Virus record (IMG/VR): IMGVR_UViG_2541047498_000018
DNA length: 40,212 nucleotides
Direction: 5' to 3' (one strand)
From: a virus
Taxonomy: Duplodnaviria; Heunggongvirae; Uroviricota; Caudoviricetes
Part shown: piece after piece, positions 1,800-38,480 of the stretch
Layout of the letters: each line of letters starts with the position of its first letter
Numbering within the stretch: position 1 is the first letter of the stretch
Notes under the pieces: generated by a model
Told to the model about the DNA's origin: nothing
The model's database searches: none
What the model saw: only the letters and a program-made list of their open reading frames with translations
Program-made: the position numbers and the translations under genes

Positions 1800-2116
1800 C
1801 AATCTGTAAAAACTTGCATCAATGCTTTACTTCGAGCTCGTGGCGTATCCTATGATATTCCCCGGTCTCCTGTAAAGCAGAGATGCATAAAAAGGAGATC
1901 TTTATCATGGATGAAAGAGCCTGTTTGCCCTGCCTGTAAGACTCCCTTACAGCTCATCTATCGCCGTTCTCGATCTCAAAATGGCAAGACATACAAACCC
2001 AAAAATGCTTCCTGTTTCAGGATGCTGATATGTCCTGCCTGTTCTCCCAGGAGGGAAAATACACAAAACGTGCATTAACAAACTCACCCGGCAGGGAAAC
2101 CTGCCGGTCGGTATTG

Positions 2117-2362: not shown

Positions 2363-2397
2363 GAATATTCTCCTTTTGCAGGTATATTGCCCCGTTA

Positions 2398-2580
2398 TCA
2401 GAGCGGGGTCGGGTCGTTTGGGGATGACGGTGCCTGTGCTGTTTTACTGAGTTTTTCAGCTGCCGCATCATCAATTTTACGGCGAATATAATTTCTGATG
2501 ACCTTATAACCACCGCTCACCAGATATAACGCACTGACCACAGCGCAGAAATAAAGCAGCATTGTATGAACGAATGTCAT
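2398..2580 (-). CDS. Hypothetical small membrane protein (60 aa), cargo module
   Basis: N-terminal hydrophobic segment LLYFCAVVSALYLVSGGY followed by a basic stretch. Co-oriented within the cargo module. Confidence 0.4.
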   Translation of the reverse strand: MTFVHTMLLYFCAVVSALYLVSGGYKVIRNYIRRKIDDAAAEKLSKTAQAPSSPNDPTPL

Positions 2581-2726
2581 ATAACCTTACCTTTGATATT
2601 GACTACATAATTCGTTATCGGGTAAAAACATCGAAGCGACTGATAACCACTCCTTCGGGAGTATTTTTATTTTCCTTTATGGGTTAGGTAGCTCCCGCCA
2701 GCCATATCATGACCGGCGGGATTTTT

Positions 2727-4766: not shown

Positions 4767-4865
4767 AATAATCAGCCTGTTCCTGAATAAACTGAATTAT
4801 CATATCCACAGACCGATAAACGCCATTTTGCGTTAATTCAGTAAAGGCCCAACAAAGGGAGCGTC

Positions 4866-7958: not shown

Positions 7959-9034
7959 GTGATTTCCCCCACGGTCAGCAACTCTGTATCTCCGGCCATC
8001 ACGGACTTCAGCGGGCTGCGAACTTCAAAATCCTCCAGTCCTTTCACCCCTGCAACAGCCCGCCAGAATGATGAAGGCAATACAAGTCCACCCGGCCGCG
8101 ATTCGTTATAAAGCAGGTCCGTTAATGCCTGTTTTACGGCAGCCTGATTTTCCGGCGTTTTGGGTACAATCCTGATCTCAAACGCCACCGGCTTATTGGT
8201 CAGCTTAAACACGCTGATTGTCGGCCCAAGTGGCTGACCAACGGGCTGGCCCGTCGCCGGATCATCATGACTGCGGATATAATCCGCCACCCGCTTCACA
8301 TCACCTTCTCCGGGGAAAATGTCAGGGTTATTATCCTGAACAAAAGTCACACCAACACTACCCGCCTCAGGCCATTCAGGCTTACACCATGCCCGCGTCA
8401 CGCCCGGTACTTCCCGTGCCCAGCGTTCAAAATCATACTGTGTTCCCCCTGATGGCGGGTTCTGTACCCGGAATACCAGCCTGGACAGCAACTCCGGCAC
8501 CGTTTCCACATCCGCACCACCGGTGAGTCCCGTGCCGGTGACCGTGGCTGTCTGGTTGATGCCCGCCTGTGGCGTGATAAAGGACAGGCGGGTTCCGGTC
8601 GGGGTATTTCCAGCGCGCCCCGCACTTTCCGCCTCCACATTAACATTCAGTGTTCCGGCTTTTCCGGTCGCAGAGCCGGTGATGCGGTACACAACACCAT
8701 CGCTTCGCTGAAGGAGTACGCCTTCCGTGATCCCTGCATCCGTGGTCAGCATCAGTTGTACCGGTCCGTCAGCGCGGGAAGCCGGTTTACGGATGACACC
8801 CCAGAATGCGCAGTGTTTCAGGAGTTCGGCTTCATCAGCTTCTGTCGGAATTATCTGCCGGGAGATCCAGGCCAGATGTTCATGCTCCTGTGCTGACAGA
8901 CCCGCCAGTGCATACGCAATGGCATTCAGGGTGGTTTCATTCACGCCCGGCTGCGAACCGGGCAGGCGCTGGCTGATATCCTGTTGTGTCTGTGTGATCA
9001 GTTGCGCCAGTGGTAAGGGCTGATAAGGCATCAT
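7949..9034 (-). CDS. Baseplate J-like protein (Mu gp47-like)
   Basis: 361-aa ORF in the baseplate block, with the size and position of Mu gp47 / P2 gpJ-family proteins. Confidence 0.7.
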   Translation of the reverse strand: MMPYQPLPLAQLITQTQQDISQRLPGSQPGVNETTLNAIAYALAGLSAQEHEHLAWISRQIIPTEADEAELLKHCAFWGVIRKPASRADGPVQLMLTTDAGITEGVLLQRSDGVVYRITGSATGKAGTLNVNVEAESAGRAGNTPTGTRLSFITPQAGINQTATVTGTGLTGGADVETVPELLSRLVFRVQNPPSGGTQYDFERWAREVPGVTRAWCKPEWPEAGSVGVTFVQDNNPDIFPGEGDVKRVADYIRSHDDPATGQPVGQPLGPTISVFKLTNKPVAFEIRIVPKTPENQAAVKQALTDLLYNESRPGGLVLPSSFWRAVAGVKGLEDFEVRSPLKSVMAGDTELLTVGEITWL

Positions 9035-9468
9035 TCCCCCTTCATATCAGCATAAAAAATCATCGGATGTCTGCTTCCGTCCGGCAGGGTGATTTTCACG
9101 GAAAGCGAAAGGCGAGCATGCCCCACACGCATGGCATGACATACCACGGATGTGGCAGCACCGCTTTTATGCAGCCACGCCAGCGCTTCATCAGCATAGG
9201 CCTGTGCACGGCTGACCACGGAGGACAGCGTCTTTTCACGGCTTAACAGCCAGAGACGGGAGCCAACGGGGCGCTCCCGGAAACTGTCTCCCCACCATCC
9301 CCGACGGTCACGGGTGCCGTCAGGGATTTCATCGGAATCCAGCGCCCGCCTGTCCGTAAACAGTGAAATAATGACCGCAGTCAGCAGGCTGTTATCCGTC
9401 AGAAGATCTGCGCCGTTCAGTTGCAGGGAACCGCAACCCTGATCCCAGACGACAGCAATATCAGCCAT
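9031..9468 (-). CDS. Baseplate protein (Mu gp46-like)
   Basis: Internal ATG at 9468 (MADIAVVWDQ...) chosen because the track ORF start at 9681 would overlap the upstream gene by over 200 nt. About 145 aa. Confidence 0.55.
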   Translation of the reverse strand: MADIAVVWDQGCGSLQLNGADLLTDNSLLTAVIISLFTDRRALDSDEIPDGTRDRRGWWGDSFRERPVGSRLWLLSREKTLSSVVSRAQAYADEALAWLHKSGAATSVVCHAMRVGHARLSLSVKITLPDGSRHPMIFYADMKGE

Positions 9469-10075
9469 TCTCTGGTCCTCCCGTTTTGCTGCCTTCACCG
9501 TTATCGTGATGCACATGACCTGAATAGGTGATCCCGGCAATAACCGCTTCGGACATCGTGAACGTCCCCTGTGATCTTCCGGTGCCGTCAATGGACACAT
9601 TGCCTTTGACATGCAGGTTCTTATCCACTGTGACATTACCGGTAAAGTGAGCCTCCGGTGTATCCACCTGAACACCTTCATCGGCGTAAATCTCCAGCGT
9701 CTTACAGGTCACAATGATCCGGCCGTTCTTTGTCAGACGTATACGGTGCCCCTCATGGTGATACACGCCGGTATCTCCGGCGGTAAGTCCGGTCGGGCGA
9801 CTGCGGCGGTCTTCCACCACAAGCACCACGGCCTGATCCCGTTGTCCGCCAGCACAGGCCAGAAAAACTTCCGCACCAGGCAGGGGGACGCTGATTTGCC
9901 CGTACTGCTGGGGGCGTTCAACGTCATCAAAGGTTTCACCATCCATACCGGTGATTTGCACATTCTGGATTTTCAGCGTGTCCGTTGTGCCGGTCAGTAC
10001 ACCACGCCCGAACAGCAGACGAACACCCCGCATCACGGGGGCCAGAAGGCGGCTGATGACTTCGTCATTCATCAT
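9461..10075 (-). CDS. Baseplate spike/assembly protein (Mu gp45-like)
   Basis: 204-aa ORF between the gp44-like and gp46-like genes, with small overlaps to both neighbours. Confidence 0.6.
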   Translation of the reverse strand: MMNDEVISRLLAPVMRGVRLLFGRGVLTGTTDTLKIQNVQITGMDGETFDDVERPQQYGQISVPLPGAEVFLACAGGQRDQAVVLVVEDRRSRPTGLTAGDTGVYHHEGHRIRLTKNGRIIVTCKTLEIYADEGVQVDTPEAHFTGNVTVDKNLHVKGNVSIDGTGRSQGTFTMSEAVIAGITYSGHVHHDNGEGSKTGGPENG

Positions 10076-11189
10076 TGAATTTAATCCCCTGTTTTTTCAT
10101 CTGTGCCCGCACGAAGGCGTCCACGTCACCCGCATTTCCGCTTCCGCTGTTTCCCGGCTCTGCCGGAACAATAAAGCCGTCACGGGGTGCCAGAATCAGA
10201 CGGGTGGTTTCGCCGTGATTTGCATCCAGCGAAAACTCCACCTGACAGACAAGAAGATCACGCTCTTCCACTCCGGTGCGGGGAGCCGTGACAGCCGTCA
10301 GCAGGTTGATATCCCACAACTGGCCGTTCTCCCGAAACCAGTGCCGCACGGTGGCTGTCAGGCGCACAGAGCGGGCAACCGCCCGGCGCATTTCCCGGAC
10401 AGCCCTCTGGCGTGCACCGTCTGCATCAACAGCATGATCCGCCAGCACAATTTTCGGTCTGTAACGGTGGATGGCACTGTCTGTCACCGTACCAACGGGT
10501 GCGGCCAGCGTTCCGGCTGTCAGTGCATCCCCGGCATGACCACCACCACGCCCGTGCCCCCGTACACGGTATTCACTGTGGCGCAGACGGTGATCCACGT
10601 TGTGATCCAAATCCAGCAGATTTTCGCCCAGCGTCAGCGTGTCGCCACGCTGACTGCCGGCCTGAGTGAAAACCAGTTCACCGGCGGCATTACTGGTTAC
10701 CAGGACGCCTCTGTGTCTCGCGGCCCGTGTCAGCGCATCTGCCACGGTTTCTGAGTTTTCCAGTGTGAAGGTGGAAAAGGGCCGGGCTGCCGTTGCATCA
10801 TTTACCTGCCAGCGCACCGTGACCCCGAACGGAGCACACAAATCTGAAGCAATGTGCTCCAGCGTGCGGTTCCTCCACTGGCTGCCCGGATGAATGGCTG
10901 AACAGTCCACCAGGTCACCGGTTTTATCCCGTCCGCTGAGCGTGATCTGAAAACGCGTGGCGCTGATGCGCTGCCGGACCTGATCCAGCCAGCCAGTGAT
11001 CACAGGCTGACCGTCAATGCGCAATTCCAGAGACTGACCGGCACGGACGGATGACGGAAGGCGTACACCGGGCATCATTACCCCCAGTTCAAAGGAGCCC
11101 GCCAGATGTTCAAGAGAGCGACGAACACTCACCGTCAGCCAGCCGGAAAAAATCTCACCGCCCAGATACAGTTCAACCCTGCTGCTCAC
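10065..11189 (-). CDS. Tail/baseplate hub protein (Mu P/gp44-like, P2 gpD-like)
   Basis: 374-aa ORF following the N-like gene, in the Mu P position. Confidence 0.65.
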   Translation of the reverse strand: MSSRVELYLGGEIFSGWLTVSVRRSLEHLAGSFELGVMMPGVRLPSSVRAGQSLELRIDGQPVITGWLDQVRQRISATRFQITLSGRDKTGDLVDCSAIHPGSQWRNRTLEHIASDLCAPFGVTVRWQVNDATAARPFSTFTLENSETVADALTRAARHRGVLVTSNAAGELVFTQAGSQRGDTLTLGENLLDLDHNVDHRLRHSEYRVRGHGRGGGHAGDALTAGTLAAPVGTVTDSAIHRYRPKIVLADHAVDADGARQRAVREMRRAVARSVRLTATVRHWFRENGQLWDINLLTAVTAPRTGVEERDLLVCQVEFSLDANHGETTRLILAPRDGFIVPAEPGNSGSGNAGDVDAFVRAQMKKQGIKFNDE

Positions 11190-12543
11190 TAATCACCTCC
11201 ACTGAATGGCCTCCGGGAATGAACAGCGGATCAACAATACCGTTACGGCGCACAAAACGTTGCCAGCCGGTACTGTTCCCGGTGGCACGGTACAGGGTCA
11301 CCAGTGCAGGCTCGGTGGTACGTACAGTCACTACTGTTGCACCGGGTAGCTGAACTCCCCGTGTATTCAGATCCTCTGTCAGTGCCAGTCTGGCATCACG
11401 AAGCGTCAGCGCCGTGGCGGTATACCCCTGCCCGGACAGTGTCATCACCTGCCGTTCGAGCGCTTCGCTTAAGTCACGGTTAATGCGCTGAAGATCAACT
11501 GAACTTTCCAGCCAGACAGGCCAGGTACGGTGGGCTGCGTCACTGTCCGGCAGGGTTTCCTGACTGAGAACCTGATCCAGCAGTTTTCCCACGGTCTGTG
11601 CCTGGGCCACCACGGCAGCACTCTGCATTACCGCCCGTATCAGACGAATATTCTTTTGTGCTGCCGGTGTCAGACCGATGAGAGTCTGCGGATTATCCTG
11701 CTCATCCAGCACGTAACGCAGGGAAGATAATGTCCTGTACAGTTGCGGCATTCCCTGAGAGAAGGCGGATGTCGTCCGGCCGATACTGCCACCGGGCCGG
11801 GTATTCAGGCCTCCTGAAGACAGTGACGGCAGCGATGGCAGGGTGATCAGGGCACTGAAAAGCCCCGCAAAAGATGAGGCCATGCGGGAAGGTGCTGTCA
11901 GTAATGCCGTGGCATTCCCTTTCAGCGCCGTGAACGTGGCAGTAAAGGCACTGATATCCTGTACAATCCCCATGCCGGAAACGGCATTTTCCAGGGCGGA
12001 CACCTTATCGCTGATGGTTTCGGTCATTGCCTGGACATCGTGCATTCCGTCAGAAATCACCGTCCAGCCCGCTTCCAGGGTTTCAAAAACCTTCCCGAGC
12101 GCGGTGGTACTCTTCTGCTCCAGAATGGCGGCCGTGTCCTGTGTGACAGCAGGTGCGGTATCATCACTTACCGGCGTGACATTAATGGTGAACTCAACCA
12201 CGCCCTGTTCAGCAGCGTTATAACGACTTTCAAAGCTGTTTATCAGCACATTTAACGTGCCGTAATCCGGGTGAAGCAGCTCCCCGGCACCGGGAGCACG
12301 AAGGGCATCACGCAGACGATTTCGCTGTGTCTGAACATCATCCCCCATCACAAGTACACTGAACGTAAATTCAGCCAGTTTAGGTCCCAGATCGTCTGCA
12401 CCACCGGTTTCCCGTAACGGATATTCCCGACGGACAATGTTTCGCCCGCCACGTTCGCGCTGCTCACGCCAGACGAGGAACGGCACACCACGGAACGCAC
12501 CACGACCGTCACCAGAGGCCATAATTCCCTCCGTTCCAGACAT
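11173..12543 (-). CDS. DNA circularisation protein N-like (Mu gp43-like)
   Basis: 456-aa ORF directly after the tape measure gene. N-terminal FRGVPFLV motif as recalled for the Mu N family. Confidence 0.65.
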   Translation of the reverse strand: MSGTEGIMASGDGRGAFRGVPFLVWREQRERGGRNIVRREYPLRETGGADDLGPKLAEFTFSVLVMGDDVQTQRNRLRDALRAPGAGELLHPDYGTLNVLINSFESRYNAAEQGVVEFTINVTPVSDDTAPAVTQDTAAILEQKSTTALGKVFETLEAGWTVISDGMHDVQAMTETISDKVSALENAVSGMGIVQDISAFTATFTALKGNATALLTAPSRMASSFAGLFSALITLPSLPSLSSGGLNTRPGGSIGRTTSAFSQGMPQLYRTLSSLRYVLDEQDNPQTLIGLTPAAQKNIRLIRAVMQSAAVVAQAQTVGKLLDQVLSQETLPDSDAAHRTWPVWLESSVDLQRINRDLSEALERQVMTLSGQGYTATALTLRDARLALTEDLNTRGVQLPGATVVTVRTTEPALVTLYRATGNSTGWQRFVRRNGIVDPLFIPGGHSVEVISEQQG

Positions 12544-20783: not shown

Positions 20784-20959
20784 TCCGGCAGCATAAGCCG
20801 GGAATTTTCAGGGCGGGTTTTGCGGGATTTCAGGAAGTGCTTCCAGGGGAAAAATACAAAGGCGCTTCACGCAGATTTTAAAGCCCGTTAAATACAGGTT
20901 AGAAAATCACGACACGCGCCTGAAGGGGGTAAGGTAATGCATTTGCATACCTTAAACAA

Positions 20960-21433: not shown

Positions 21434-21554
21434 ATTGCCTCCGCATAAAGGATGAATATAAAATAAACAGGCGGTCAGTGTACGCTTAACTGGTAAAGTC
21501 GGTGCCTGCCTCCGGGTGGATCATGTATGCGGGTTCAACCCCCGCCACTGACCG

Positions 21555-26706: not shown

Positions 26707-26997
26707 CTACCCCCTTGCGCGTGGTTTCTTCACACCCGGAACGGTGGCGCGGCCTTCCGCCACATCCTGACCCCGGCCGGTCAGTTCAGCGATGAAATAA
26801 CCATTAACGAGCGTGCGCTTACGCACCAGCCCCTGCTCGGCAAGCCAGGCAATATGAGTATGAACGGTGTCGCGGGACACGCGGTGACCGTAATCATCCA
26901 GACAGTCCTGGAGCACGGATTCACCCAGTTCGCCGTTGTAATCCGCCAGCGACCGCAGAATGACAAGACGCTGATCTTCAGTAATGAAATCACTCAT
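26707..26997 (-). CDS. Hypothetical protein, possible winged-helix DNA-binding fold
   Basis: 96-aa ORF tightly packed upstream of the small terminase candidate. Fold guess only. Confidence 0.4.
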   Translation of the reverse strand: MSDFITEDQRLVILRSLADYNGELGESVLQDCLDDYGHRVSRDTVHTHIAWLAEQGLVRKRTLVNGYFIAELTGRGQDVAEGRATVPGVKKPRARG

Positions 26998-27302
26998 TGT
27001 GTTTTTTTCCTTACCGCCTGCTCCAGCAGCAGTTCGTTCTGATAGGAGACAGAGCGGAGCGTGGCGTTCGTGGTTTTCAGTTCACCCCGCAGGGTCACGA
27101 TTTCCACATTCAGACGGTTGACCTCGGCTTCTGTCGGCAGTGACGACAGGCGGGTTTCCACCTTCTCAACGCGGTCGGAGAGTTTTTCAAAGGCCTCGCG
27201 GGGGACAAACGTTTTGCGCATCAGCGCCATGAATATCCCGCCAGCGGTTGCCGTCGCCGAAAGGATCGGCACAACATAATCTTTAACGATGCTGACCCAC
27301 AT
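26994..27302 (-). CDS. Hypothetical membrane protein with N-terminal transmembrane helix and coiled coil
   Basis: 102-aa ORF with hydrophobic segment VVPILSATATAGGIFMALM and a charged helical C-terminus, next to the lysis cassette. Confidence 0.45.
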   Translation of the reverse strand: MWVSIVKDYVVPILSATATAGGIFMALMRKTFVPREAFEKLSDRVEKVETRLSSLPTEAEVNRLNVEIVTLRGELKTTNATLRSVSYQNELLLEQAVRKKTQ

Positions 27303-27510
27303 GACGGGCCTCCATGATGTTCTGGCAGTTCACACAACGGATGGCATCCGGCACAGCAACAAGACGTGCGGCGGGGATCTCTCCGCCACAGTCCGCGCAG
27401 ACACGTCTGCCCGGAGCATCCATTGCCCGGCGCTTACGTGTCAGCCGGTTACAAAGGGCGCGTTCTGATCCCCGCTCCATCACAGCCTGAGCACGATCTG
27501 AATCATCCAT
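27283..27510 (-). CDS. TraR/DksA-family C4 zinc-finger protein
   Basis: CADCGGEI...(17 aa)...CVNCQ pattern at the C-terminus. Start assigned to the ATG giving MDDSDRAQA...; the track ORF extends upstream to 27576. Confidence 0.65.
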   Translation of the reverse strand: MDDSDRAQAVMERGSERALCNRLTRKRRAMDAPGRRVCADCGGEIPAARLVAVPDAIRCVNCQNIMEARHVGQHR

Positions 27511-27520
27511 ACCTTTTTCC

Positions 27521-27892
27521 TTACTTCGTCTTTCCTGCCGGAACAGCAGGCGTTCCGGCCATATCAGTAAATTCATGTTGTCGCCGCGCCTCCAGACGAC
27601 GAATACTGGCCTTGTCCACGTTGCAGTTCTTGATCACCGCCAGCAGTTGCAGGTTGTAAGTGACCGATGCCCCAAACGTGAACGGCTCCGGCGCAGGAGG
27701 GACCAGGCAGTCAGCCAGCCATTCAGCGGGGATCGGCACCGGCTTCACAGGCACGTATTTCACAGACGGCCCGGCGCACCCGATCAGCCACATCATCAGG
27801 AACAGGGGCAGAGGCCGCAGGCACTGCCTCCAGCGACCGGCGGACAACGCTCTGCTGCCCCTCGCTGTGCTGAATGTTCTGTTGTTTTTCAT
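27521..27892 (-). CDS. Candidate o-spanin (outer-membrane lipoprotein) overlapping the i-spanin frame
   Basis: Alternate frame within and past the i-spanin candidate encodes LFLMMWLIGCAGPS (a lipobox-like LIGC) followed by a Pro-rich sequence. Start uncertain. Confidence 0.3.
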   Translation of the reverse strand: MKNNRTFSTARGSRALSAGRWRQCLRPLPLFLMMWLIGCAGPSVKYVPVKPVPIPAEWLADCLVPPAPEPFTFGASVTYNLQLLAVIKNCNVDKASIRRLEARRQHEFTDMAGTPAVPAGKTK

Positions 27893-28223
27893 TCGTGGCC
27901 GCCTCACTGATTTGTGAAATGAGTTGCAGGGTGTGCTGCTGATTTGCCAGCACCTGACGCGCCTCATCCCGCTCACGCACAAGCACCTGATTATTGTCTT
28001 CAAGGCGCTGCGTCTTCTGGTGCATTCCCCATATAGCGGCAACCAGTACAGCGATAATCCCCAGCGCCGCCATGCACGCCCCGGCAATCAGGGCCGGTAA
28101 GGCATTATTCACCGCAGCCACAGGACACCCCGTAACAGCAGTACCGCACACAGCAGCGCTATCATGAGCGGTCGCCAGAAGCGGTTCAGACTTTCGGCAA
28201 GTCGTAGCGACATAACCATTCAT
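27723..28223 (-). CDS. Candidate i-spanin (Rz-like): transmembrane helix plus periplasmic coiled coil
   Basis: ORF immediately downstream of the endolysin gene with hydrophobic segment ALPALIAGACMAALGIIAVLVAAIW and a Gln/Glu/Arg-rich helical region. Start uncertain. Confidence 0.4.
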   Translation of the reverse strand: MNGYVATTCRKSEPLLATAHDSAAVCGTAVTGCPVAAVNNALPALIAGACMAALGIIAVLVAAIWGMHQKTQRLEDNNQVLVRERDEARQVLANQQHTLQLISQISEAATNEKQQNIQHSEGQQSVVRRSLEAVPAASAPVPDDVADRVRRAVCEIRACEAGADPR

Positions 28224-28686
28224 CCGCCGAACGGCGGGCCTCAAGGCCGGGGAGTTTCACCCCCTTTGAATAAATCCAGCGGATATACTGCTTACAGGAC
28301 GCGGGCATCTGCCCGGCATTGATCAGGCGCAGAAGCGTGGAGTTGCGAAAGTTCGTTTCACCGGCCCAGAAGATCCACGAAGCCAGCGCCACCGTCTGAC
28401 CACGGGTAAGCGGCACCTGAACACGCCGATCAATGGCCGCAAAGGCCCATTTCATGTCCTTTTCCAGTAGTTCCAGGCATTCTTCATCTGTCAGGGTCAT
28501 ACCCGGTTTCACATCCGGGCCGGTATGGCCGTAACAGATGGTGGGTGTACCGGTGGGATCGATATACGTGGAGTTTTCTTTCCCTTCCCAGTAACCGGTG
28601 TAATGCGTGGCAATCGTGAACGTCCCGGCACCGGCCAGAACAAGGGCAATCAGCTTTTTACGCAGTGGTGCGGGGAGTTTTGGCAT
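28186..28686 (-). CDS. lys: SAR endolysin (T4-lysozyme-like muramidase with N-terminal signal-anchor-release domain)
   Basis: N-terminal Gly/Ala-rich weakly hydrophobic segment LIALVLAGAGTFTIA, then E...D...T spacing in EGKENSTYIDPTGTPTICYGHTG typical of the lysozyme catalytic triad. Confidence 0.8.
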   Translation of the reverse strand: MPKLPAPLRKKLIALVLAGAGTFTIATHYTGYWEGKENSTYIDPTGTPTICYGHTGPDVKPGMTLTDEECLELLEKDMKWAFAAIDRRVQVPLTRGQTVALASWIFWAGETNFRNSTLLRLINAGQMPASCKQYIRWIYSKGVKLPGLEARRSADEWLCRYDLPKV

Positions 28687-28757
28687 TGTTACGCTGTCTC
28701 ATGATGTTCTCTGAGTCAGCGTAACGGTGAAGGAGAGGCGGCAGGCTTTGCGGAATA

Positions 28758-29183
28758 TCAGAAAAGTGGCGGTTGCGTTCTTACCAGATGCAGACGGCGC
28801 TGTTCGCGTATGACGGTATAAATCTGGGTTTCTGACATCCGGTAATGGCGGCGAAGGGATTCAATTTTCTCGCCCCGGTCCCAGCGCGAAAATATCTCAT
28901 TGTTTCGCAGCTCGGCAAAGAGAGATTCCCCGACCGGCAGGTAATAACCCCGTCCGCCCATATAGGCGGCCTGAGCCGCAGCCACCTTGCGTGCCAGTTT
29001 ACCGGCCAGTACCGGCTCAATCCCCTGACGCTGAAGTTCTGCGCCGGTGACTTCAACCAGTTCTGACAGGGTCCGCGGCCAGTTCTTTTTGAGAACATCA
29101 TCAGGGATGTCATCAAGGCGGTCGATAAGGGCGTGCAGTTGCTCACTGTCACCACCAAACATGCTCATCTGAGTTTCTGCCAT
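28758..29183 (-). CDS. mor: Mor/C-family transcription activator (middle/late gene activator)
   Basis: 141 aa with YMGGRGYYLPVG and a C-terminal HTH (MSETQIYTVIREQRR), matching the Mor/C family as recalled. Located between the GemA-like gene and the lysis genes. Confidence 0.7.
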   Translation of the reverse strand: MAETQMSMFGGDSEQLHALIDRLDDIPDDVLKKNWPRTLSELVEVTGAELQRQGIEPVLAGKLARKVAAAQAAYMGGRGYYLPVGESLFAELRNNEIFSRWDRGEKIESLRRHYRMSETQIYTVIREQRRLHLVRTQPPLF

Positions 29184-29252
29184 ATCAGCCTCCGGTTCTC
29201 GCGTTCCCGGTAAGTTTAAAATAAAAATCCCGCGTTGTGGCGGGATTTGGAG

Positions 29253-29762
29253 TTAACGGGGAAGTGATTTTTCATACTGCCTGCAAACGGCGTCATACCC
29301 CATCAGCGTGCGTTCGGGCATTCCCATCGCGGCCAGCATTTTGCGGCGGTGCCATCGCTTGAGACGCTCCAGCACATCTGAGGCCAGGGCGGGGTGTTGC
29401 TCCAGCCACTGCCAGTTTGCCACACCTTCGCCGCCGTTCTGCGCGGCCGTCTGCGATTTCACCCAGCGGTTAAGGGCGGTTTCCGCACCATCGGTGATAA
29501 AGCCCTGCCGGTGCATCACCTTCCAGATGGCGCGAATTTTGGCGGTCACCGTACCCGGTTTTAAGGCCCGGTTAACCGGGTTCTGACGCACTTTAAAACC
29601 GCGTTTTTTGAAAACATCCAGCACGCGGGATAACTCATCCGGTGACATATCCCGGCAGCTGGTTTTGCCGGTAGCTGCCAGCAGCGCGGATGTATAAGTC
29701 TCATCATCCAGGGCAAGCTCGCGCTTTGCCACATGAATGGCGGATATCAGTTTTCCTCTCAT
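29253..29762 (-). CDS. GemA-like regulatory protein (Mu gp16-like, DUF1018-like)
   Basis: 169-aa ORF directly upstream of the Mor/C-family gene, the position of gemA in Mu. Confidence 0.5.
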   Translation of the reverse strand: MRGKLISAIHVAKRELALDDETYTSALLAATGKTSCRDMSPDELSRVLDVFKKRGFKVRQNPVNRALKPGTVTAKIRAIWKVMHRQGFITDGAETALNRWVKSQTAAQNGGEGVANWQWLEQHPALASDVLERLKRWHRRKMLAAMGMPERTLMGYDAVCRQYEKSLPR

Positions 29763-30055
29763 ACCGTATTTACCTTTTTACGGACATGGAAAGCCTTTTC
29801 TGCCTCATCCCACCGGGCATGGTGTGTTGGCGGAATAATCATTATGTGCCAGCCATCTCTGCTTGTTATTCGGCAGAAAAATTCACCGTTATATAACACA
29901 ATGGCCTGCTGAATGAGCGCATCAGCCGCCCGTTCAACCGGATGTCTTTTATCAAAAAAGCAGATGATTTTTCGACATAACCACCGGGTAATAACAAATG
30001 CGCCGAAAAAGGATGTGATATATAAGCACCAGAACAACAGAGAACTATTGTCCAT
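29759..30055 (-). CDS. Hypothetical protein with N-terminal hydrophobic segment
   Basis: 98-aa ORF in the tightly packed early operon (LLFWCLYITSFFGAFVI). Confidence 0.4.
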   Translation of the reverse strand: MDNSSLLFWCLYITSFFGAFVITRWLCRKIICFFDKRHPVERAADALIQQAIVLYNGEFFCRITSRDGWHIMIIPPTHHARWDEAEKAFHVRKKVNTV

Positions 30056-30242
30056 TATCTTTCTCCTTATTCACTCTTCTGCGGCATTCGGCACAGTCAT
30101 CAGGGCTTTCAAATGTATCCGGCTCGCGATTATGAGCCAGATATAACCACCGTCCACATATACTGATATTTTCGCCTGTTTTAAAAAAATGATGCTTCCT
30201 GGCCATTAGTGGCCGCGCCCATCCAGCGGGTAGACTATTCAT
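30045..30242 (-). CDS. Hypothetical small Cys-containing protein
   Basis: 65-aa ORF overlapping its neighbours by a few nt. Contains C...CAEC. Confidence 0.35.
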   Translation of the reverse strand: MNSLPAGWARPLMARKHHFFKTGENISICGRWLYLAHNREPDTFESPDDCAECRRRVNKEKDNGQ

Positions 30243-30570
30243 TTGCTTTATCCTCCATGCTGGACAGAATCATATGTATTAATGTCGGGCGTGGAGATAT
30301 ACGCATTTCATTAAGCGTCTGAAGGGCAGCAACAGCTGCCTGTTTATCGGTGCCTTTGGCAATTTCAGCAAGAGAATGCACAATCCATAACGGGCTTAAC
30401 GCTACGGCTGAATGCAGAATCATGTCATCCATAATAATTTCTGGCATATCCCGTTTGTCACATTCTTTATCCATAAAAGAAACGATTTTTTCTGCATCTT
30501 CCGGTTTCATGCCTCCGGCGATGAGAATTTTACGATATTCATAAGACGATCTTAATTCAATACTCATCAT
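30235..30570 (-). CDS. Hypothetical early protein
   Basis: 111-aa ORF in the early operon. No family recognised. Confidence 0.4.
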   Translation of the reverse strand: MMSIELRSSYEYRKILIAGGMKPEDAEKIVSFMDKECDKRDMPEIIMDDMILHSAVALSPLWIVHSLAEIAKGTDKQAAVAALQTLNEMRISPRPTLIHMILSSMEDKANE

Positions 30571-30582
30571 TCACCTGCCTGT

Positions 30583-30975
30583 TTAATCAGTTTCCAGTGC
30601 TTTGCTACGGGCAACAGCCTCACACTCAAAAAATACCGACTCCGGCACACGCTCCTTTAATTCACGAACAAGAAAATCATTAACGAGTTCATGACGTCTT
30701 ATATTTCTTTCCTTTTCCTCCTGGCGCAATACAGCAAGGCGGTATTCAACAGTCCGGCGTTGTTTCTGAAAGACAGCCAGTGCTTTTCTGGCAGAGTTAC
30801 GCCATGTATCATCGCCACAGGGTTCGTATTCAAGCTGAAATTTAATCTCTTCAATGGTTTCTTTTATTTTTGCCAGCAAGCTAAGACAGTCGCTGATTGT
30901 CTTCAGTTTTTCATTATCAATATAACTTCTCACGCATTCACCTCCCGTCATTCCGGTAAAGCTGAAATATGGCAC
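30583..30975 (-). CDS. Hypothetical early protein
   Basis: 130-aa ORF. True start may be the internal Met near 30954. Confidence 0.4.
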   Translation of the reverse strand: MPYFSFTGMTGGECVRSYIDNEKLKTISDCLSLLAKIKETIEEIKFQLEYEPCGDDTWRNSARKALAVFQKQRRTVEYRLAVLRQEEKERNIRRHELVNDFLVRELKERVPESVFFECEAVARSKALETD

Positions 30976-31259
30976 CAGTGCGTCACCTGTCCGTCCTCAT
31001 CTTCAAGGCAGGCTCCGGTTTCTTCATCAATAAAAAAGCCTTCATACCCCATATGGCCGATGCGCAGTTCCTGTTGGTCACCATACTGAACAATCAGCAC
31101 GACAGCCTCCATATCAGGCGGGAAAGCATCATTCAGTGAATGCCAGGGATAACCGCGCAAATCCCCGAAATAAACACCGGTCAGCGTTCCGCCACAGACC
31201 GGCATTCCGACGGCACACACAAGGGGTTCATCTGATTCAACAAATAATGTCGTTATCAT
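30948..31259 (-). CDS. Hypothetical early protein
   Basis: 103-aa acidic ORF in the early operon. Confidence 0.4.
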   Translation of the reverse strand: MITTLFVESDEPLVCAVGMPVCGGTLTGVYFGDLRGYPWHSLNDAFPPDMEAVVLIVQYGDQQELRIGHMGYEGFFIDEETGACLEDEDGQVTHWCHISALPE

Positions 31260-31807
31260 GGCATTAATTCCCGTAATACAACATCTTCGGCAGTCCGACG
31301 ACGGTGATAAATAAAACTCACCGTGCCCTCGGATAATTCAAATTTCTCGCCGATTTCCCTAAAGGTAAGACGCCGTGGTGATTCAGCATCCCGTAATTCA
31401 CGAATAAGACGAACATCATCGTCAGGTATGCGGGTGAAGGGCAGCAACTCTCCGTATTTTTTCATGCTTACGCCAATATATCGCGCCCGATTGTGGACAG
31501 AATCCCGGTCTCGCCCCAGATATTCTCCTATTTGCTTACCGGTCATTGTTCTGGCATTTTTTCGGATAAATTTATCTTCATCAGGTTTAAATCTGAGGCG
31601 TTTGCATTTGAGCAACTCCGGGTAAGTACCGCGTAATAAAACAATCCGGTTATGTACACCCCAGAAACTTCTTTTTATCCTGACAGCAATATCCTTAACC
31701 GGGGTGGATGGATAAAGCGCAATCAGCAGCGCATCTTCTTCAGGTGTCCATGCGCGAACATGAGCGGGTGCACGGCCTTTTCTCCCCATGGGTTGTAATA
31801 TCATCAT
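31256..31807 (-). CDS. Hypothetical DNA-binding protein with three HTH-like repeats
   Basis: 183 aa with three repeated segments that look like helix-turn-helix units (WTPEEDALLIAL..., FKPDEDKFIRKNARTMTGKQIGEYLG..., RLTFREIGEKFELSEGTVSFIYHRRR). Confidence 0.45.
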   Translation of the reverse strand: MMILQPMGRKGRAPAHVRAWTPEEDALLIALYPSTPVKDIAVRIKRSFWGVHNRIVLLRGTYPELLKCKRLRFKPDEDKFIRKNARTMTGKQIGEYLGRDRDSVHNRARYIGVSMKKYGELLPFTRIPDDDVRLIRELRDAESPRRLTFREIGEKFELSEGTVSFIYHRRRTAEDVVLRELMP

Positions 31808-35161: not shown

Positions 35162-35389
35162 TTAGCTGACTTGTTTCGCACCAACAGAACGGCATATTCC
35201 GCTGTAAACGTCTGTCGCACCTTCGCGATCAAGTCCGGCAGATATCACCATTCGTGTGCGGTCATTAAATTCAAAAAGTAAATCGCCACATTCTTTATTT
35301 TCGGCCAGTGAAATCACCTTCACGTTATCGAAATTAACCAGGTAAAAGCGTCCGTAAATATCAGGAATATTAAATACCGCCATAATCAC
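35162..35389 (-). CDS. Small early protein immediately after B (position of Mu kil)
   Basis: 75-aa ORF whose start overlaps the B stop. Assigned by position and size only. Confidence 0.35.
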   Translation of the reverse strand: MIMAVFNIPDIYGRFYLVNFDNVKVISLAENKECGDLLFEFNDRTRMVISAGLDREGATDVYSGICRSVGAKQVS

Positions 35390-36318
35390 ACCTGTGAGAG
35401 TAATTCAGGGTTGGTATAAACCTCTTTAAAGGCCGCATTAATATGTTTTTCTGTCAGCGCCGCGCCTTCACCGCTGGCGGTGAGCCACGCCTGGTTAAGC
35501 GTATGTGTCAGAACGCGTAACGCTCCCGGCTTTTCAGCGATAGCCTGCATGACGGCCAGCTCGGCCTCACCACTGATCCCCCACGCCCTGGCAATGGCCA
35601 GCACATCCGCCTTTTTGGCCTTGCGAAGTTGTTTTGTACGGGCAAGACGGCTGAACAGGCGCGATAAATCATCAAAGGCGCGGCGTCCACCTTTAAACAA
35701 TCCGCGCGGGTTACCAATAAGCACCATCCCGATCCCCGTGGCGTCCTGAATTGCCCGGAGTTGCTCCAGACCGTCAATACCCAGATGATCCGCCTCATCC
35801 ACAATCACCAGTCCACGCGTTCCCATCAGGCGACGGCGGATGGCGCGGGATAATGCCCCTTTGTTCGCGCGGGTGTAATCAATCCCCAGCGCATCGGCCA
35901 GCTCCAGCAGACACTCCGTGACGCTGGAGTGCGCGGGTGACAGGGTGATCATCCAGGTGTTTGGTTGCTCCTGGCAGTAATTACGGGCAGTGGCCGTTTT
36001 ACCCACACCCGGTACGCCCACAATAACGTTAATACAGCCCATCAGACGAACCGCCTGAAACAGTGCGCGCAGCTCCTGGACTGTCTGCGTTTCCACAAAC
36101 TGCGGCGGTTCCGGCAGTGCGCTTTGTTTATTCCAGTTTTCATACCAGGAACGCAGGGAAGCAGCCACAGCGGCGTTATCGCCTTTATATTTCCCCTTGC
36201 GGAAAGCCGATAATGTGCCGTCGGAAATTCCCGCCTCTCTGGCGATGGCATACTGCGTCAGTACGCCGCCATCAATAAGTTCATCAATGGTCTTGATTAC
36301 ATCGTTAATATCAGTCAT
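35386..36318 (-). CDS. B: MuB-like AAA+ ATPase (target DNA activator of transposition)
   Basis: 310 aa with an N-terminal HTH region and Walker A motif GVPGVGKT. Immediately downstream of the transposase gene. Confidence 0.9.
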   Translation of the reverse strand: MTDINDVIKTIDELIDGGVLTQYAIAREAGISDGTLSAFRKGKYKGDNAAVAASLRSWYENWNKQSALPEPPQFVETQTVQELRALFQAVRLMGCINVIVGVPGVGKTATARNYCQEQPNTWMITLSPAHSSVTECLLELADALGIDYTRANKGALSRAIRRRLMGTRGLVIVDEADHLGIDGLEQLRAIQDATGIGMVLIGNPRGLFKGGRRAFDDLSRLFSRLARTKQLRKAKKADVLAIARAWGISGEAELAVMQAIAEKPGALRVLTHTLNQAWLTASGEGAALTEKHINAAFKEVYTNPELLSQV

Positions 36319-36389: not shown

Positions 36390-38480
36390 TCAGGCCAGCG
36401 GGTCATTTTCTTTTAATTTCGCTTCCAGCAACTGCAATCCCCGCTGGAAATTACGCTCGTATTCTTCATCAGGTTCATCGTCAGCGACCGGTTGCTGAAC
36501 GGTCACCGTATTACCCACAGGGCGGTATATGTTTTCCAGCCAGGGCTCCTGCGGCTTGTGCTCCAGCACGTTGACAACCTCATCCTCGGCATCACGGATT
36601 TTTTCCTCTGCGCGTTTACGCATGCCTTTAAGGCGTTGCTGCTGTTTGTAGTATTCCGCGCTGACCGGGAAGGCTTCGCGTTTATTGCCGTCCCATACCG
36701 CCTCGCAAATCACGCTGCCATCCAGGCGACGTACGGTAATTCGTTCGGCATCATGAATGTCATAGCTGATAAGCACCTTACGGCCATGCTCGTCACGCAG
36801 CTCGGGCGCGTAGTAAATATTATTCAGCCAGCGTATTTCACAGCGTCTTACAGGGCGTTCCACCATCGGCCGGAACATATCCCGCAGCTCAACATCGGAC
36901 AGCCATTCAATTTCCGTGTCCTCTTCCGCCAGGCGTTTTTTTCTGAACTCCGCCGGGCTGTAATGCTTGCCGTTCGGCTTCACCGGTAATTCATCGTGCG
37001 GCCGGTTGTTGTACCACTCAACACCGTCACGAATGGCATCAATCAGTTCAGACCAGGACGGTAAATCACGCATCGCTGACTGCTGCCGGGCGTTCAGCCG
37101 TTTGCCCTGTTGCAGGGCAGTAAATGCCGAGCGTAAATCGCGGTTGGTTTTGCGTAACGTCTCGCGATCTGCACCTTTCCCGAAATAGGTGCGGTATTTA
37201 CGGGCTATGCGCATCGGTAATGTGCGGTTAAGCCGTTCGATAATGCCTCGTCCCTGCGGATTACCGGCAATCCCGGTCGGGTGATTAATCCCCAGTCGCG
37301 GCAGTATCCCCACAACCTCCTTATCCAGGATGTCGGCGGTTTCCCCGGAGCCGTTATCCGAGTAATACAGAAACGGTTTGCCGTGATGGCGAATGCCGTG
37401 CTGTATGGCACCGGCTACGGCGAAAACATTTTCAGCCAGGTCAAGGCTCCAGCCCACCACAAAGCGCGTGCCACCGTCGATAACAAAGGTCACTTCCGGT
37501 GCAAATGGCCGACCGTGAACCGGGTGTGCGCATTTCAGCTTCATGCCGTGACCGTCACCAATCCAGACATAATTCACCGGCATTCTGGACCAGTCGCGGC
37601 GCGTGAATCCCTCAAGCTGGCGGTATTCACTGCCGGTCACCCGGCCTTTTTGTTTCACCACTTCCGGCAGTTTCTTCATTGCGCGGCGAATGGTGTCATA
37701 AGACGGCATGATATCGAGCATATAAGGCTCATCAGCGTGCCGGTGCTGCCATTCAGCGACAAAATCCTCGTAAGCCTCGGTCATTGGTCGGCCGTTTGAC
37801 TGGCGATACTGCGCCAGAAATTCGGGCAGCCAGTTAATATCTTCGGCTTTTATTTCCTGGCGCTTACCCGGTGCCAGTAAAAGCAGGCGTTCAGCGGCGT
37901 TCTGCGCCTTGTTAAAGGCCGCAATCCAGCGTTTCAGCGTGATTTCACTTAACGCGCGGCTGTTTCCCTTTTTGGCGTTCGCCGTCTCAACCATTGCCAC
38001 AATGCGCTCGTCCAGCTGCGAACGTGCCAGGTTGTCAACGATAAACCGGATAGCCTTCGCACAGCTGAAACCAGGTTGTTGCGCGACTTTCAGAACTTCG
38101 CTGACGATCGCGATTCGTGCATCAGCCACCTGGCGCTGGTTTTCAGTCAGGGCATTAAGGCGTTCGACCATCAGTTGTGGTGATCCGCGATATGCCTCCA
38201 CCGCATCAACCACGGCAGGCGAGCGTCTGGCCTTTGTCACCACTGGAGCCGGTGATTCATCGACTTTTTGAGTCATCAGTTGCAGGGCGTAGCGTTCACG
38301 TAATGCCTGCTGCGTCACTTCAGGTAAACAGTCGATGCTGTATTCAGTTGCTTTAGAGCCTGAGCGACGACGGGAACAACAGCTTTTCCCTTGTACGTAA
38401 CGTTGTAATGCCTGGCGAATACCTTTTGTTGTAGCAGGCATTCCGGGCGCGCCAATCAGTTCTTTTGCAATGACATACAT
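36390..38480 (-). CDS. A: MuA-like DDE transposase
   Basis: 696-aa ORF immediately after ner, at the Mu A position and size (Mu A is 663 aa). Contains a DGHG motif consistent with a DDE catalytic core. Confidence 0.93.
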   Translation of the reverse strand: MYVIAKELIGAPGMPATTKGIRQALQRYVQGKSCCSRRRSGSKATEYSIDCLPEVTQQALRERYALQLMTQKVDESPAPVVTKARRSPAVVDAVEAYRGSPQLMVERLNALTENQRQVADARIAIVSEVLKVAQQPGFSCAKAIRFIVDNLARSQLDERIVAMVETANAKKGNSRALSEITLKRWIAAFNKAQNAAERLLLLAPGKRQEIKAEDINWLPEFLAQYRQSNGRPMTEAYEDFVAEWQHRHADEPYMLDIMPSYDTIRRAMKKLPEVVKQKGRVTGSEYRQLEGFTRRDWSRMPVNYVWIGDGHGMKLKCAHPVHGRPFAPEVTFVIDGGTRFVVGWSLDLAENVFAVAGAIQHGIRHHGKPFLYYSDNGSGETADILDKEVVGILPRLGINHPTGIAGNPQGRGIIERLNRTLPMRIARKYRTYFGKGADRETLRKTNRDLRSAFTALQQGKRLNARQQSAMRDLPSWSELIDAIRDGVEWYNNRPHDELPVKPNGKHYSPAEFRKKRLAEEDTEIEWLSDVELRDMFRPMVERPVRRCEIRWLNNIYYAPELRDEHGRKVLISYDIHDAERITVRRLDGSVICEAVWDGNKREAFPVSAEYYKQQQRLKGMRKRAEEKIRDAEDEVVNVLEHKPQEPWLENIYRPVGNTVTVQQPVADDEPDEEYERNFQRGLQLLEAKLKENDPLA

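Follow-up and report, generated by a model that had tools for sequence, protein, structure and literature searches.

How does a Mu-like prophage with only one recognizable activator of the Mor/C family control its late genes, and what is a TraR-type zinc-finger gene doing among them? The question is raised by an Sp18-type Mu-like prophage of E. coli, which lies on the minus strand and is contained entire, from the repressor through mom, in the window analyzed here (the whole stretch of 40,212 nt, IMG/VR record IMGVR_UViG_2541047498_000018). The region was matched in 231 of 5426 complete E. coli genomes (~4%), with at least 99% identity in ~155 records. Sp18 itself, the Mu-like prophage of E. 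coli O157:H7 Sakai, is of the same type and differs in nothing substantial; it was predicted to be intact and its DNA is packaged efficiently, and its regulators are not discussed in the published description (PMC2669165). The NCBI annotation (PGAP) of the activator and TraR-type genes is identical to the present calls in coordinates and names; the two genes come from families that are well described, automatic annotation had named them already, and as a finding they are ordinary. No RNA genes emerged from Rfam and tRNA scans of the window. The following genes bear on the question.

31256-31807: gene of a 183-aa early protein with several helix-turn-helix motifs
29253..29762, minus strand: gemA (gp16), the final gene of the early region (Pfam GemA, E 3.2e-30)
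28758..29183, minus strand: the sole Mor/C-family activator gene, C type, 141 aa (Pfam Mor, PF08765)
28186..28686, minus strand: endolysin (lysozyme) gene, first gene of the lys operon (Pfam Phage_lysozyme, E 6e-37)
27723-28151, minus strand: candidate inner-membrane spanin gene (PGAP annotation), in the spanin block 27521..28151
27521-27763, minus strand: LysC outer-membrane spanin gene (PGAP annotation; Pfam LysC, E 5e-16)
27283..27510, minus strand: TraR-type C4 zinc-finger protein gene, 75 aa (Pfam zf-dskA_traR, PF01258)
26994..27302, minus strand: DUF2730 gene, counterpart of Mu gp25 'releasin' (Pfam DUF2730, E 7e-20)

The single Mor/C-family activator

The product of 28758-29183 matched Pfam Mor (PF08765) with an E-value of 1.2e-31 (109 bits), covering profile positions 2–107 of 107. 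An HMM built from Mor, C, and their relatives was run without filtering against every ORF of 25 aa or more in the six frames of the 40-kb window. This search gave one match (E 9e-60) and no second Mor/C paralogue in the window, the runner-up having an E-value of 2.5. As a control, the same HMM was run on Mu and found its two paralogues, Mor and C; Mu Mor was detected (E 3e-22) even when all Mor-type sequences were left out of the model. The original prediction that the prophage has only one Mor/C gene is thereby upheld, as is its placement of the endolysin gene directly after it: the activator gene is separated by 69 bp from gemA and by 71 bp from the lysozyme gene, whose product is 39% identical to Mu Lys. 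Homologs of Mu gp18, gp19, and gp20 were not found in the window by tblastn. One Mor/C gene and the lack of a gp18–20 middle operon support a regulatory cascade with fewer tiers than that of Mu, in which Mor, Pm, C, and the late promoters follow in turn; the difference is one Mor/C tier, with the Mu-type middle operon absent.

Judged by its sequence, the activator is of the C type. BLASTP gave 39% identity (105 bits) with Mu C and 27% (51 bits) with Mu Mor; a PDB sequence search returned 9l0x_G, the Mu late transcription activator C, at 2e-26 and Mor (1rr7) at 4e-9; the protein matched phrog_532, 'late transcriptional activator' (1.3e-44); and a neighbor-joining tree clustered the protein with Mu C and the Pmp9 activator. 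The features of the Mor domain (acidic dimerization domain at the N-terminus, beta-strand linker, helix-turn-helix at the C-terminus) are present, the linker GGRGYYLPVG and the helix-turn-helix aligning with Mu C. Residues of Mu C that contact DNA include R72, Y75, P77, S110, Q113, and Y115 (bioRxiv 10.1101/2025.05.02.651988), all of which are conserved in alignments of the activator to Mu C; R98, Q116, and R120 are different, which fits a box sequence unlike that of Mu. MuC binds the clamp through the motifs QHDLF and QPDLF, with the family consensus Qx[D/E][L/M]F and QPDLF (PMC12867686). Candidate counterparts in the activator are QMSMF at residues 5–9, in which the S at position 3 conforms to the general clamp-binding consensus QL[SD]LF, and QPPLF at residues 137–141, the C-terminus, so that both putative motifs match those described for MuC.

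The comparison with Mu C (gp21) thus extends from family and sub-branch, with the GGRxxYxP linker and helix-turn-helix kept, to a gene directly 5′ of lys and to target promoters that are predicted here to be without a -35 element. Unlike Mu C, however, the window activator is the sole one, with no Mor, Pm, or gp18–20 before its gene; no terminator lies between its gene and lys, and its box is unlike the ATAAyCCCC-type sequence common to four Mu late promoters. Mu Mor (gp17) belongs to the same family, and in Mu it is mor that is the activator gene directly after gemA, but the window activator is only 27% identical to it. The Mor-type branch includes the single activators of Mu's sister clade, and the window activator does not fall in it.

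Predicted late promoters and the hairpin upstream of the activator gene

The regulatory features discussed below are as follows.

29225..29248, minus strand: intrinsic-terminator hairpin with a 9-bp stem and T run, in the gap between gemA and the activator gene (terminator scan)
28740..28766, minus strand: predicted activator box of the lys promoter, CTTTTCTGATATTCCGCAAAGCCTGCC, at about -55 to -29, overlapping the activator stop codon
28718..28723, minus strand: TACGCT, predicted -10 of the lys promoter, 16 bp 3′ of the box, the same spacing as at the I promoter
20812..20838, minus strand: predicted activator box of the promoter of gene I (head protease), ACTTCCTGAAATCCCGCAAAACCCGCC, matching the 22-bp core
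4820..4846, minus strand: weaker third box (…CTGAATTAACGCAAAA…), with TATGAT at 4799-4804

Activators of the Mor/C family act at promoters that have a -10, no -35, and an upstream binding site at about -30 to -55. The box consensus was built on two strong sites and one weak site. The window has exactly two copies of its 22-bp core, CTGAwATyCCGCAAArCCyGCC, compared with zero expected from shuffles. At the lys promoter, relatives preserve both the box and the -10 region, with variation in the intervening 14 bp; no match to a -35 element was found there, as with Mu late promoters. The predicted I promoter has its -10, TATGCT, at 20790-20795, with spacing identical to that of the lys promoter; its box is conserved in a relative, E. 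coli strain M3 (score 45/47), and sits in the G-I intergenic gap, the location of the PI promoter in Mu. The third box lies 3′ of gin and 5′ of a 679-aa DUF6645 gene, where Mu has Pmom, and strain M3 has an independent match at the equivalent position amid otherwise diverged sequence. The pattern TGAWWTNNCGCAAAR occurs three times (0.04 expected), in each case on the coding strand and upstream of an operon start, a count made partly circular by the derivation of the pattern from the same sites. From motif, spacing, and conservation we infer activator-responsive promoters before lys and I, and a similar promoter probably precedes the genes downstream of gin.

A search for C-box-like motifs upstream of lys, I, P, and com had been suggested. 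None of the Mu type was found before a late operon, and the different box found here precedes lys and I but was not found for P or com. The sequence of the Mu late promoters (ATAAyCCCC-type; Plys, PI, PP, Pmom) was found upstream of none of lys, I, and com. Matches in the window to the Mu motifs ATAAyCCC and TTAT-N6-ATAA fell in coding regions only, none of them before a late operon, suggesting that the Mu late-promoter motif is not used here. As for a PP-like promoter, gene N holds a poor candidate only, whose spacing is wrong and whose -10 reads TACGTG, and no box was found directly before com/mom in the searched window.

The hairpin between gemA and the activator gene is kept in relatives 88–90% identical. 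In strain M3, two copies of it flank an insertion of ~640 bp, and the copy adjoining the activator gene retains the downstream TATTTTAAACTT. Shewanella phage MuM16-2 likewise has a hairpin terminator between gp16 and its lone Mor/C gene. The late-promoter box resembles, in its 3′ half, the left arm of the hairpin (CAAATCCCGCC), TATTTT stands at late-promoter spacing, and the hairpin is possibly also part of a promoter of the activator gene. As an autoregulatory box for that gene the hairpin scored 31/47, equal to background, and we keep the idea as a hypothesis only. Early transcription would proceed through gemA up to the hairpin terminator, and the activator gene would be reached via terminator read-through, a weak promoter overlapping the hairpin, or both.

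The TraR-type gene in the lys operon

The original prediction also placed a TraR/DksA-type C4 zinc finger among the late genes. The product of 27283-27510 indeed matched PF01258 (E 7.7e-12; 45.4 bits, cut-off 24.9), and its gene is located in the lys operon. Its alignment with the solved structures of TraR, 5w1s/6n57, is end to end (E 2e-5), with residues 2–69 on TraR 3–68, placing D2, D5, and A7 on TraR D3, D6, and A8, which are required for TraR function (PMC9239242). It also matched phrog_54, 'DksA-like zinc-finger protein' (9e-20, residues 1–74). The zinc ribbon C-x2-C-x17-C-x2-C (CADC-x17-CVNC) does not vary in an alignment that includes TraR and its phage homologs, and the N-terminal DxxDxA motif (MDDSDRA) is invariant among close relatives. 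From the start codon that carries a ribosome-binding site, the protein is 75 aa long and has no DksA coiled coil; F-plasmid TraR, lambda Orf73, P2 Orf82, VHML Orf8, and VP882 Orf61 are likewise ~73–75 aa. The likeness to TraR and its phage homologs comprises the N-terminal DxxDxA helix, a C4 ribbon with IPxAR and CVxCQ, and a predicted C-terminal helix; the window protein differs in being only ~32% identical, and its binding to RNA polymerase is a prediction. An AlphaFold2 model of moderate confidence (pLDDT 68) has a helix at 3–30, a zinc ribbon, and a helix at 60–72, the putative counterpart of the C-terminal TraR helix that touches the beta-lobe Si1 insertion. Foldseek found no match to this small, elongated protein in the PDB at E <0.1, and the TraR assignment was made on sequence alignment to TraR, not on the fold search.

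The ORF appears to be translated rather than spurious. An AAGGA ribosome-binding site lies 7 nt before the ATG, the gene starts 10 nt past the lysC stop codon and its end overlaps the DUF2730 gene by 20 nt, and dN/dS against ~88% identical relatives was 0.26–0.35. A pseudogene or untranslated ORF was rejected on the ribosome-binding site, the dN/dS of ~0.3, and conservation across genera. A longer ORF from 27576 is an unlikely start; it would bury the N-terminal motif and overlap lysC.

With the predicted activator-dependent lys promoter lying upstream, the TraR-type gene is a late product by position. Since it lies within the lys operon, 3′ of that promoter, it cannot start late transcription, and a role as stand-in for the missing activator or Mor is not supported. 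The other suggestion, that the phage might modulate host transcription, fares better. Phage homologs of TraR complement a dksA deletion and inhibit rrnB P1, Orf73 increases lambda yield, and the characterized homologs work on host promoters without DNA binding (PMC9239242). Because the TraR-type gene has every sequence hallmark of TraR, it is reasonable to expect that its product modulates host RNA polymerase. The known TraR systems are early, derepressed, or transfer operons, whereas the window gene belongs to the late lysis/packaging operon of a transposable phage. In particular, lambda Orf73 and VP882 TraR are encoded by early or derepressed genes, and the unlike, late expression predicted here means that the physiological role may differ too.

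Taken together, we favor, at a probability of about 0.68, an Sp18-type prophage with a single C-type activator, boxed late promoters, and a late TraR-type host modulator, with no substitute for Mor. The activator, probably with the beta sliding clamp as in MuC, would switch on -35-less promoters that carry the box 16 bp 5′ of a TAYGCT -10. The TraR-type gene, fourth in the lys operon, would be expressed late, and the N-terminal helix of its product, with D2 and D5 at the tip, would most likely enter the RNA polymerase secondary channel, as suggested by homology. By analogy with F-plasmid TraR, lambda Orf73, and P2 Orf82, from which the mode of action is taken, the protein would mimic DksA and ppGpp, shutting down host rRNA and ribosomal-protein promoters, which could raise phage yield late in infection.

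Distribution across Mu-like phages and alternative readings

We surveyed 80 viral loci, the IMG/VR loci among them gathered with a GemA profile, together with nine reference phages. Word-indexed protein searches reached close relatives only, whether started from the activator, from the TraR-like protein, or from Mu gp24; phage records and the IMG/VR loci supplied the diversity. A TraR-type gene was found directly upstream of DUF2730 in 44/44 single-Mor/C loci that could be read through to DUF2730, and all 44 of these genes encode the acidic N-terminal pair, which is kept in most Mu-like lineages. In all 20 two-Mor/C loci that slot is either empty or occupied by a decayed gp24, which carries ExxNxA and lacks the C-terminal helix, and on a GemA tree these loci form one monophyletic Mu clade. 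The layout of one activator with a TraR-type gene upstream of DUF2730 occurs in at least nine deep Mu-like lineages. The order GemA, one Mor/C, lysis genes, TraR zinc finger, DUF2730, winged-helix gene, small terminase is conserved in phages of Shewanella, Pasteurella, Vibrio, and Pseudoalteromonas and in IMG/VR contigs. BcepMu, SuMu, and D3112 have one activator, and TraR and DUF2730 matches are absent. One activator with TraR is the usual layout and the two-activator layout of Mu a derived exception; the single-activator layout is probably ancestral for DUF2730-type Mu-like phages. The idea of a different late-regulation scheme thus survives in the sense of fewer tiers than in Mu, but not as a departure from the norm, nor with TraR replacing an activator.

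Mu gp24 (64 aa, phrog_3260) occupies the same slot, with the o-spanin gene on one side and DUF2730 on the other, and has the same C-x2-C-x17-C-x2-C spacing. Profile-profile comparison with the TraR-type protein (hhalign) gave a probability of 72–83% over the zinc ribbon, and the N-terminus MNEDQNRA of gp24 compares with MTDQFDRA or MDDSDRA in TraR-type proteins. On position, cysteine spacing, hhalign probability, and N-terminal motif, gp24 is probably a decayed or repurposed TraR relative. It differs in having ExxNxA instead of DxxDxA and in stopping right after the second CxxC, without the C-terminal helix; a search against Pfam gave no TraR match even at E-values up to 10, and one relative of gp24 has lost a cysteine.

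The co-distribution of one activator with an intact TraR, and of two activators with a decayed one, is real. It could mean that the TraR-type protein is integral to late regulation, as a co-factor at activator-dependent promoters or as an off-switch for early transcription, in a role that became dispensable once the Mu lineage acquired the second Mor/C tier. The correlation is perfect in the survey, and location in the lys operon would allow positive feedback. However, the two-activator loci being one clade, the correlation reflects a single evolutionary transition and is weak evidence for a functional link; the gene lies 3′ of the late promoter and so cannot start late transcription, characterized TraR homologs target host promoters without binding DNA (PMC9239242), and BcepMu, SuMu, and D3112 have one activator and no TraR or DUF2730 match. 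We consider this reading unlikely. Equally speculative is the proposal that the protein is an ancestral, integrated component of late control in transposable phages, decayed to gp24 in Mu with the second Mor/C tier; if true, TraR and that tier would be alternative devices by which late transcription is timed or boosted, and the textbook phage Mu would be without a regulator used by most of its relatives.

Two further readings draw on the neighborhood of each gene. The zinc-finger protein might, instead of acting on RNA polymerase, serve in lysis timing or DNA packaging together with a conserved neighbor (the DUF2730 releasin, the small terminase, or the gp26 winged-helix protein). Across deep lineages, its gene invariably adjoins that for DUF2730 and in many cases overlaps it, and VP882 TraR works in complex with a phage protein, QisA (bioRxiv 10.64898/2026.07.27.740977). 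The full block from lys to the terminase is syntenic, though, so adjacency is uninformative by itself; nearly all lineages retain the acidic pair, which TraR requires solely for its effect on RNA polymerase; and the described lysis genes of Mu are gp22, gp23, gp23.1, and gp25, with gp24 unmentioned (PMC9239132), leaving a lysis or packaging role improbable. Least probable is a Mor equivalent from another family, such as the 183-aa early protein, activating a hairpin-overlapping promoter. A terminator does separate gemA from the activator gene, the strain M3 insertion with its duplicated hairpin also intervenes, suggesting that the activator gene has its own promoter, and the 183-aa protein, which is conserved in relatives, combines a weak helix-turn-helix of the Sigma70_r4 kind with a match to phrog_323 ('transcriptional regulator, D5-like', 6e-58). 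Nothing ties this protein to the hairpin promoter, however; it partly resembles the Mu early protein gp9, and read-through or autoregulation accounts for the data equally well.

On the favored reading, with a single C-type activator and a late TraR-type host modulator, the Mor-to-C cascade of Mu is a derived peculiarity, and most Mu-like phages use one activator, C-type in some lineages, including the one analyzed here, and Mor-type in others. The TraR-type gene upstream of the releasin gene is a conserved trait that supplies a probable ancestry for Mu gp24, and it adds a late-expressed setting to TraR homologs known to reprogram host transcription. The phage also offers a simple, predicted late-promoter box. 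Sp18-type prophages are active in EHEC, in which a late mimic of ppGpp/DksA could influence host physiology during induction.

The prophage and its single activator gene

The window was found to contain an entire Mu-like prophage, minus-strand in orientation and inserted in gsiA, in which transposase genes A and B are followed by the early region, gemA, the late genes, the invertible tail-fibre segment with gin, and com/mom:

about 38.8-39.5 kb, repressor gene
36390-38480, transposase gene A
35386-36318, transposase gene B
about 0.6-1.5 kb, com/mom

Prophages matching the 3 kb around the activator and TraR-type genes at 98-100% identity occur in 231 of 5426 complete E. coli genomes, many of which are O157:H7; a "Mu-like phage" inserted in two Stx phage records matches this stretch equally well. 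The prophage is of the type of Sp18 from O157 Sakai, which is predicted to be intact and whose DNA is efficiently packaged (PMC2669165). Between gin and com/mom (1614-4766) lies cargo encoding a 679-aa DUF6645 protein and DUF1378 and DUF826 proteins, together with an opposite-strand ORF. Just upstream of gemA, five or six small early ORFs (29759-31259, minus strand; GC 43-47% vs ~57% in the late region) had neither Pfam matches nor Mu homologues, and this block looks like a variable accessory region. The 183-aa product of an early gene kept in relatives (31256-31807, minus strand) contains about three repeats of the helix-turn-helix or Myb-like kind. It matched phrog_323 "transcriptional regulator, D5-like" (6e-58), gave a sub-threshold Sigma70_r4 match and showed partial similarity to gp9, an early protein of Mu (32% over 101 aa); it could be an extra early regulator. 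The PGAP annotation of the E. coli strain M3 relative places a "tRNA-OTHER" in the intergenic gap between F and G (L010 27532-27611, approximately window 21434-21554); ARAGORN and Rfam found no RNA genes in the window.

The original prediction, that the prophage has only one Mor/C-family activator gene, was borne out. The ORF at 28758-29183 (minus strand, 141 aa) matched the Pfam Mor model over the whole domain (E 1.2e-31). A Mor/C HMM built from Mu Mor, Mu C, the window activator and three relatives was run unfiltered on all stop-to-stop ORFs of at least 25 aa in the six frames of the window, and revealed this single match (E 9e-60) and no second Mor/C gene, the next best score being E 2.5. 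The search was sensitive enough, because the same HMM recovered both Mor and C in Mu; an HMM from C-type sequences alone still detected Mu Mor (E 3e-22). Mu gp18, gp19 and gp20 had no counterpart in the window, where gaps of 69 bp and 71 bp separate the activator gene from gemA and from the endolysin gene lys, respectively.

Sequence comparisons assign the activator to the C type: it was 39% identical to Mu C (105 bits) vs 27% to Mor (51 bits), and among solved structures it scored 2e-26 with "late transcription activator C" compared with 4e-9 for Mor. In a neighbour-joining tree of Mor/C proteins, it clustered with Mu C and the Pasteurella Pmp9 activator, whereas Mu Mor clustered with the single activators of another phage set. 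Close to its N-terminus the activator carries QMSMF, and it ends in QPPLF; these are counterparts of the two beta-clamp-binding motifs that are both needed for MuC function (PMC12867686). Among the DNA-contact residues reported for C (bioRxiv 10.1101/2025.05.02.651988), R72, Y75, P77, S110, Q113 and Y115 are kept, while R98, Q116 and R120 are changed, which would fit a different target sequence.

Directly 3' of gemA is a strong terminator hairpin with a 9-bp stem and a T run (29248-29225), and a terminator likewise stands between gp16 and the single Mor/C gene of Shewanella phage MuM16-2. In strain M3, an insertion of ~640 bp separates gemA from the activator gene (L007 3482-4195, approximately window 29184-29252), carrying an opposite-strand 113-aa ORF and flanked on each side by a copy of the hairpin; this gap seems to be a point of entry for additional genes. 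Since the M3 copy adjoining the activator gene retains the downstream TATTTTAAACTT, there are hints that the hairpin region may double as a promoter. In Mu Pm, the terminator/Mor site also serves as promoter. The likeness of the hairpin to the late box described below scored no better than background. Possible routes of activator expression are read-through, autoregulation and another early factor. Unlike in Mu, no terminator separates the activator gene from lys.

Predicted late promoters

The search for C-box-like motifs suggested in the original prediction succeeded in part: lys and the head protease gene I are preceded by a shared box that differs from the Mu sequence. The ATAAyCCCC-type sequence common to the four annotated Mu late promoters was not found upstream of the window's late operons, and neither a PP-like site nor a box directly upstream of com was found in the window. 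The shared box, CTGAwATyCCGCAAArCCyGCC, occurs in two copies in the window vs none expected from shuffles. At both promoters, exactly 16 bp separate the 3' end of the box from a TAYGCT -10 element, there is no -35 element, and the box covers about -55 to -29; C footprints on Mu late promoters fall at about -55 to -29. Relatives ~88% identical show no change in the box or the -10 region while differing in the intervening 14 bp, and E. coli strain M3 keeps the I-promoter box. Motif, spacing and conservation together lead us to infer that these are likely target promoters of the activator.

A weaker box with TATGAT at the same spacing follows gin, at the position that Pmom has in Mu, and strain M3 has a matching site at the same place. 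Because this box precedes the DUF6645 gene, that gene may be expressed along with the late genes.

Two further elements were observed on the minus strand. A perfect 9-bp inverted repeat, GTTACGCTG…(20 nt)…CAGCGTAAC (28688-28725), invariant in the relatives ~88% identical, extends from the predicted lys -10 to just short of the start codon of lys (28686); it may act as an operator or, should transcription arrive from upstream, as an RNA hairpin beside the lys ribosome-binding site. Upstream of com (start 1499), a GATC-rich palindromic stretch, GAATCGATCGTTTTTGTCGATCGATTG (1542-1568), kept in strain M3, is reminiscent of the region of Mu Pmom under Dam/OxyR control; no activator box was detected beside it.

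The TraR-type gene

The ORF at 27283-27510 (minus strand, 75 aa) matched the DksA/TraR zinc-finger model above the curated cut-off (E 7.7e-12), confirming the zinc-finger gene of the original prediction. This gene and the activator gene belong to known families and are already annotated, PGAP giving "TraR/DksA family transcriptional regulator" and "Mor transcription activator family protein" at the same coordinates. Residues 2-69 align with TraR 3-68 (E 2e-5), placing D2, D5 and A7 opposite TraR D3, D6 and A8, the DxxDxA motif that TraR needs in order to act in the RNA polymerase secondary channel (PMC9239242). In the zinc ribbon, both the spacing typical of the family and the residues IPxAR, P and CVxCQ are present. 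An AlphaFold2 model of moderate confidence (pLDDT 68) has helix 3-30, the zinc ribbon and helix 60-72 in the order of TraR; a Foldseek search with this model was uninformative. The ATG at 27510 is preceded by an AAGGA ribosome-binding site and stands 10 nt beyond the stop of lysC, the outer-membrane spanin gene, and the end of the gene overlaps the DUF2730 start by 20 nt. In comparisons of the gene with relatives diverged by ~25% at synonymous sites, dN/dS was 0.26-0.35. These features argue that the gene is very probably translated and place it in the lys operon as a late product.

A role for the TraR-type gene as a substitute trigger for Mor was rejected, since it lies downstream of the predicted activator-dependent promoter. 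Judging by its homology to TraR, lambda Orf73 and P2 Orf82, the protein most likely binds RNA polymerase and mimics DksA plus ppGpp late in infection, which would reduce host rRNA and ribosomal-protein transcription and improve phage yield (PMC9239242). A link with the products of neighbouring genes is also possible, as phage TraR proteins can act with a phage partner, exemplified by VP882 (bioRxiv 10.64898/2026.07.27.740977).

Distribution among Mu-like phages and Mu gp24

The order GemA, one Mor/C, lysis genes, TraR-type zinc finger, DUF2730, winged-helix gene and small terminase recurs in Shewanella MuM16-2, Pasteurella Pmp9, Vibrio martha 12B12 and Pseudoalteromonas HS6, and in siphovirus MuM16-1 with a weak TraR match; D3112, BcepMu and SuMu have a single Mor/C gene and no TraR or DUF2730 match. 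We then surveyed 80 IMG/VR loci fetched by GemA profile, using HMMs for Mor/C, TraR-like, Mu gp24 and DUF2730, with counts covering these loci and the reference phages. A TraR-type gene lay directly upstream of DUF2730 in all one-Mor/C loci that reach DUF2730 (44/44), spanning at least nine deep GemA lineages. In two-Mor/C loci, the same slot held a gp24-type gene in 18 and nothing in 2. All two-activator loci formed one clade with Mu on the GemA tree. Two Mu-clade variants with both Mor and C (L067, L070) have DUF2730 almost directly after lys; HMM and tblastn screens detected neither gp24 nor a counterpart of the Mu i-spanin gp23 in them.

In the clade sister to Mu (IMG/VR loci L077, L086, L050, L059; ~8490-11400) there is no C gene; the only activator is of the Mor type and shares 61-63% identity with Mu Mor, and after it come a homologue of gp18 and a TraR-type gene that is intact and starts with MTDE(I/T)DRI. 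The clade resembles a Mu that had yet to gain its C-type activator and would suit studies on the origin of the middle tier. Based on the survey and this clade, one activator with TraR is the common and probably ancestral state; the two activators of Mu belong to two subfamilies, each working alone elsewhere.

Mu has gp24 (64 aa, function unknown) at this position, flanked by the o-spanin gene and gp25 (DUF2730). Its cysteine spacing, C-x2-C-x17-C-x2-C, is that of the TraR-type protein, and profile-profile alignment with TraR-like proteins gave 72-83% probability over the zinc ribbon. Its N-terminus, MNEDQNRA, can be aligned with MTDQFDRA and MDDSDRA, although the motif there is ExxNxA. As gp24 stops right after the second CxxC, it lacks the C-terminal helix. 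It had no TraR match in Pfam and falls in a separate PHROG; one relative has lost a cysteine. These comparisons suggest that gp24 is probably, though not provenly, a decayed or repurposed descendant of a TraR-type gene. The pairing of an intact TraR gene with one activator, and of a decayed one with two activators, is a striking co-distribution, whose weight is limited because a single transition lies behind it; a functional link between TraR and activator number is unlikely.

The original interpretation is partly supported: the late cascade is indeed simpler than that of Mu, but this simplicity is the norm and no peculiarity of this phage. The remaining value lies in a testable late-promoter box and in the comparative picture, in which Mu is the exception and gp24 a likely TraR remnant.
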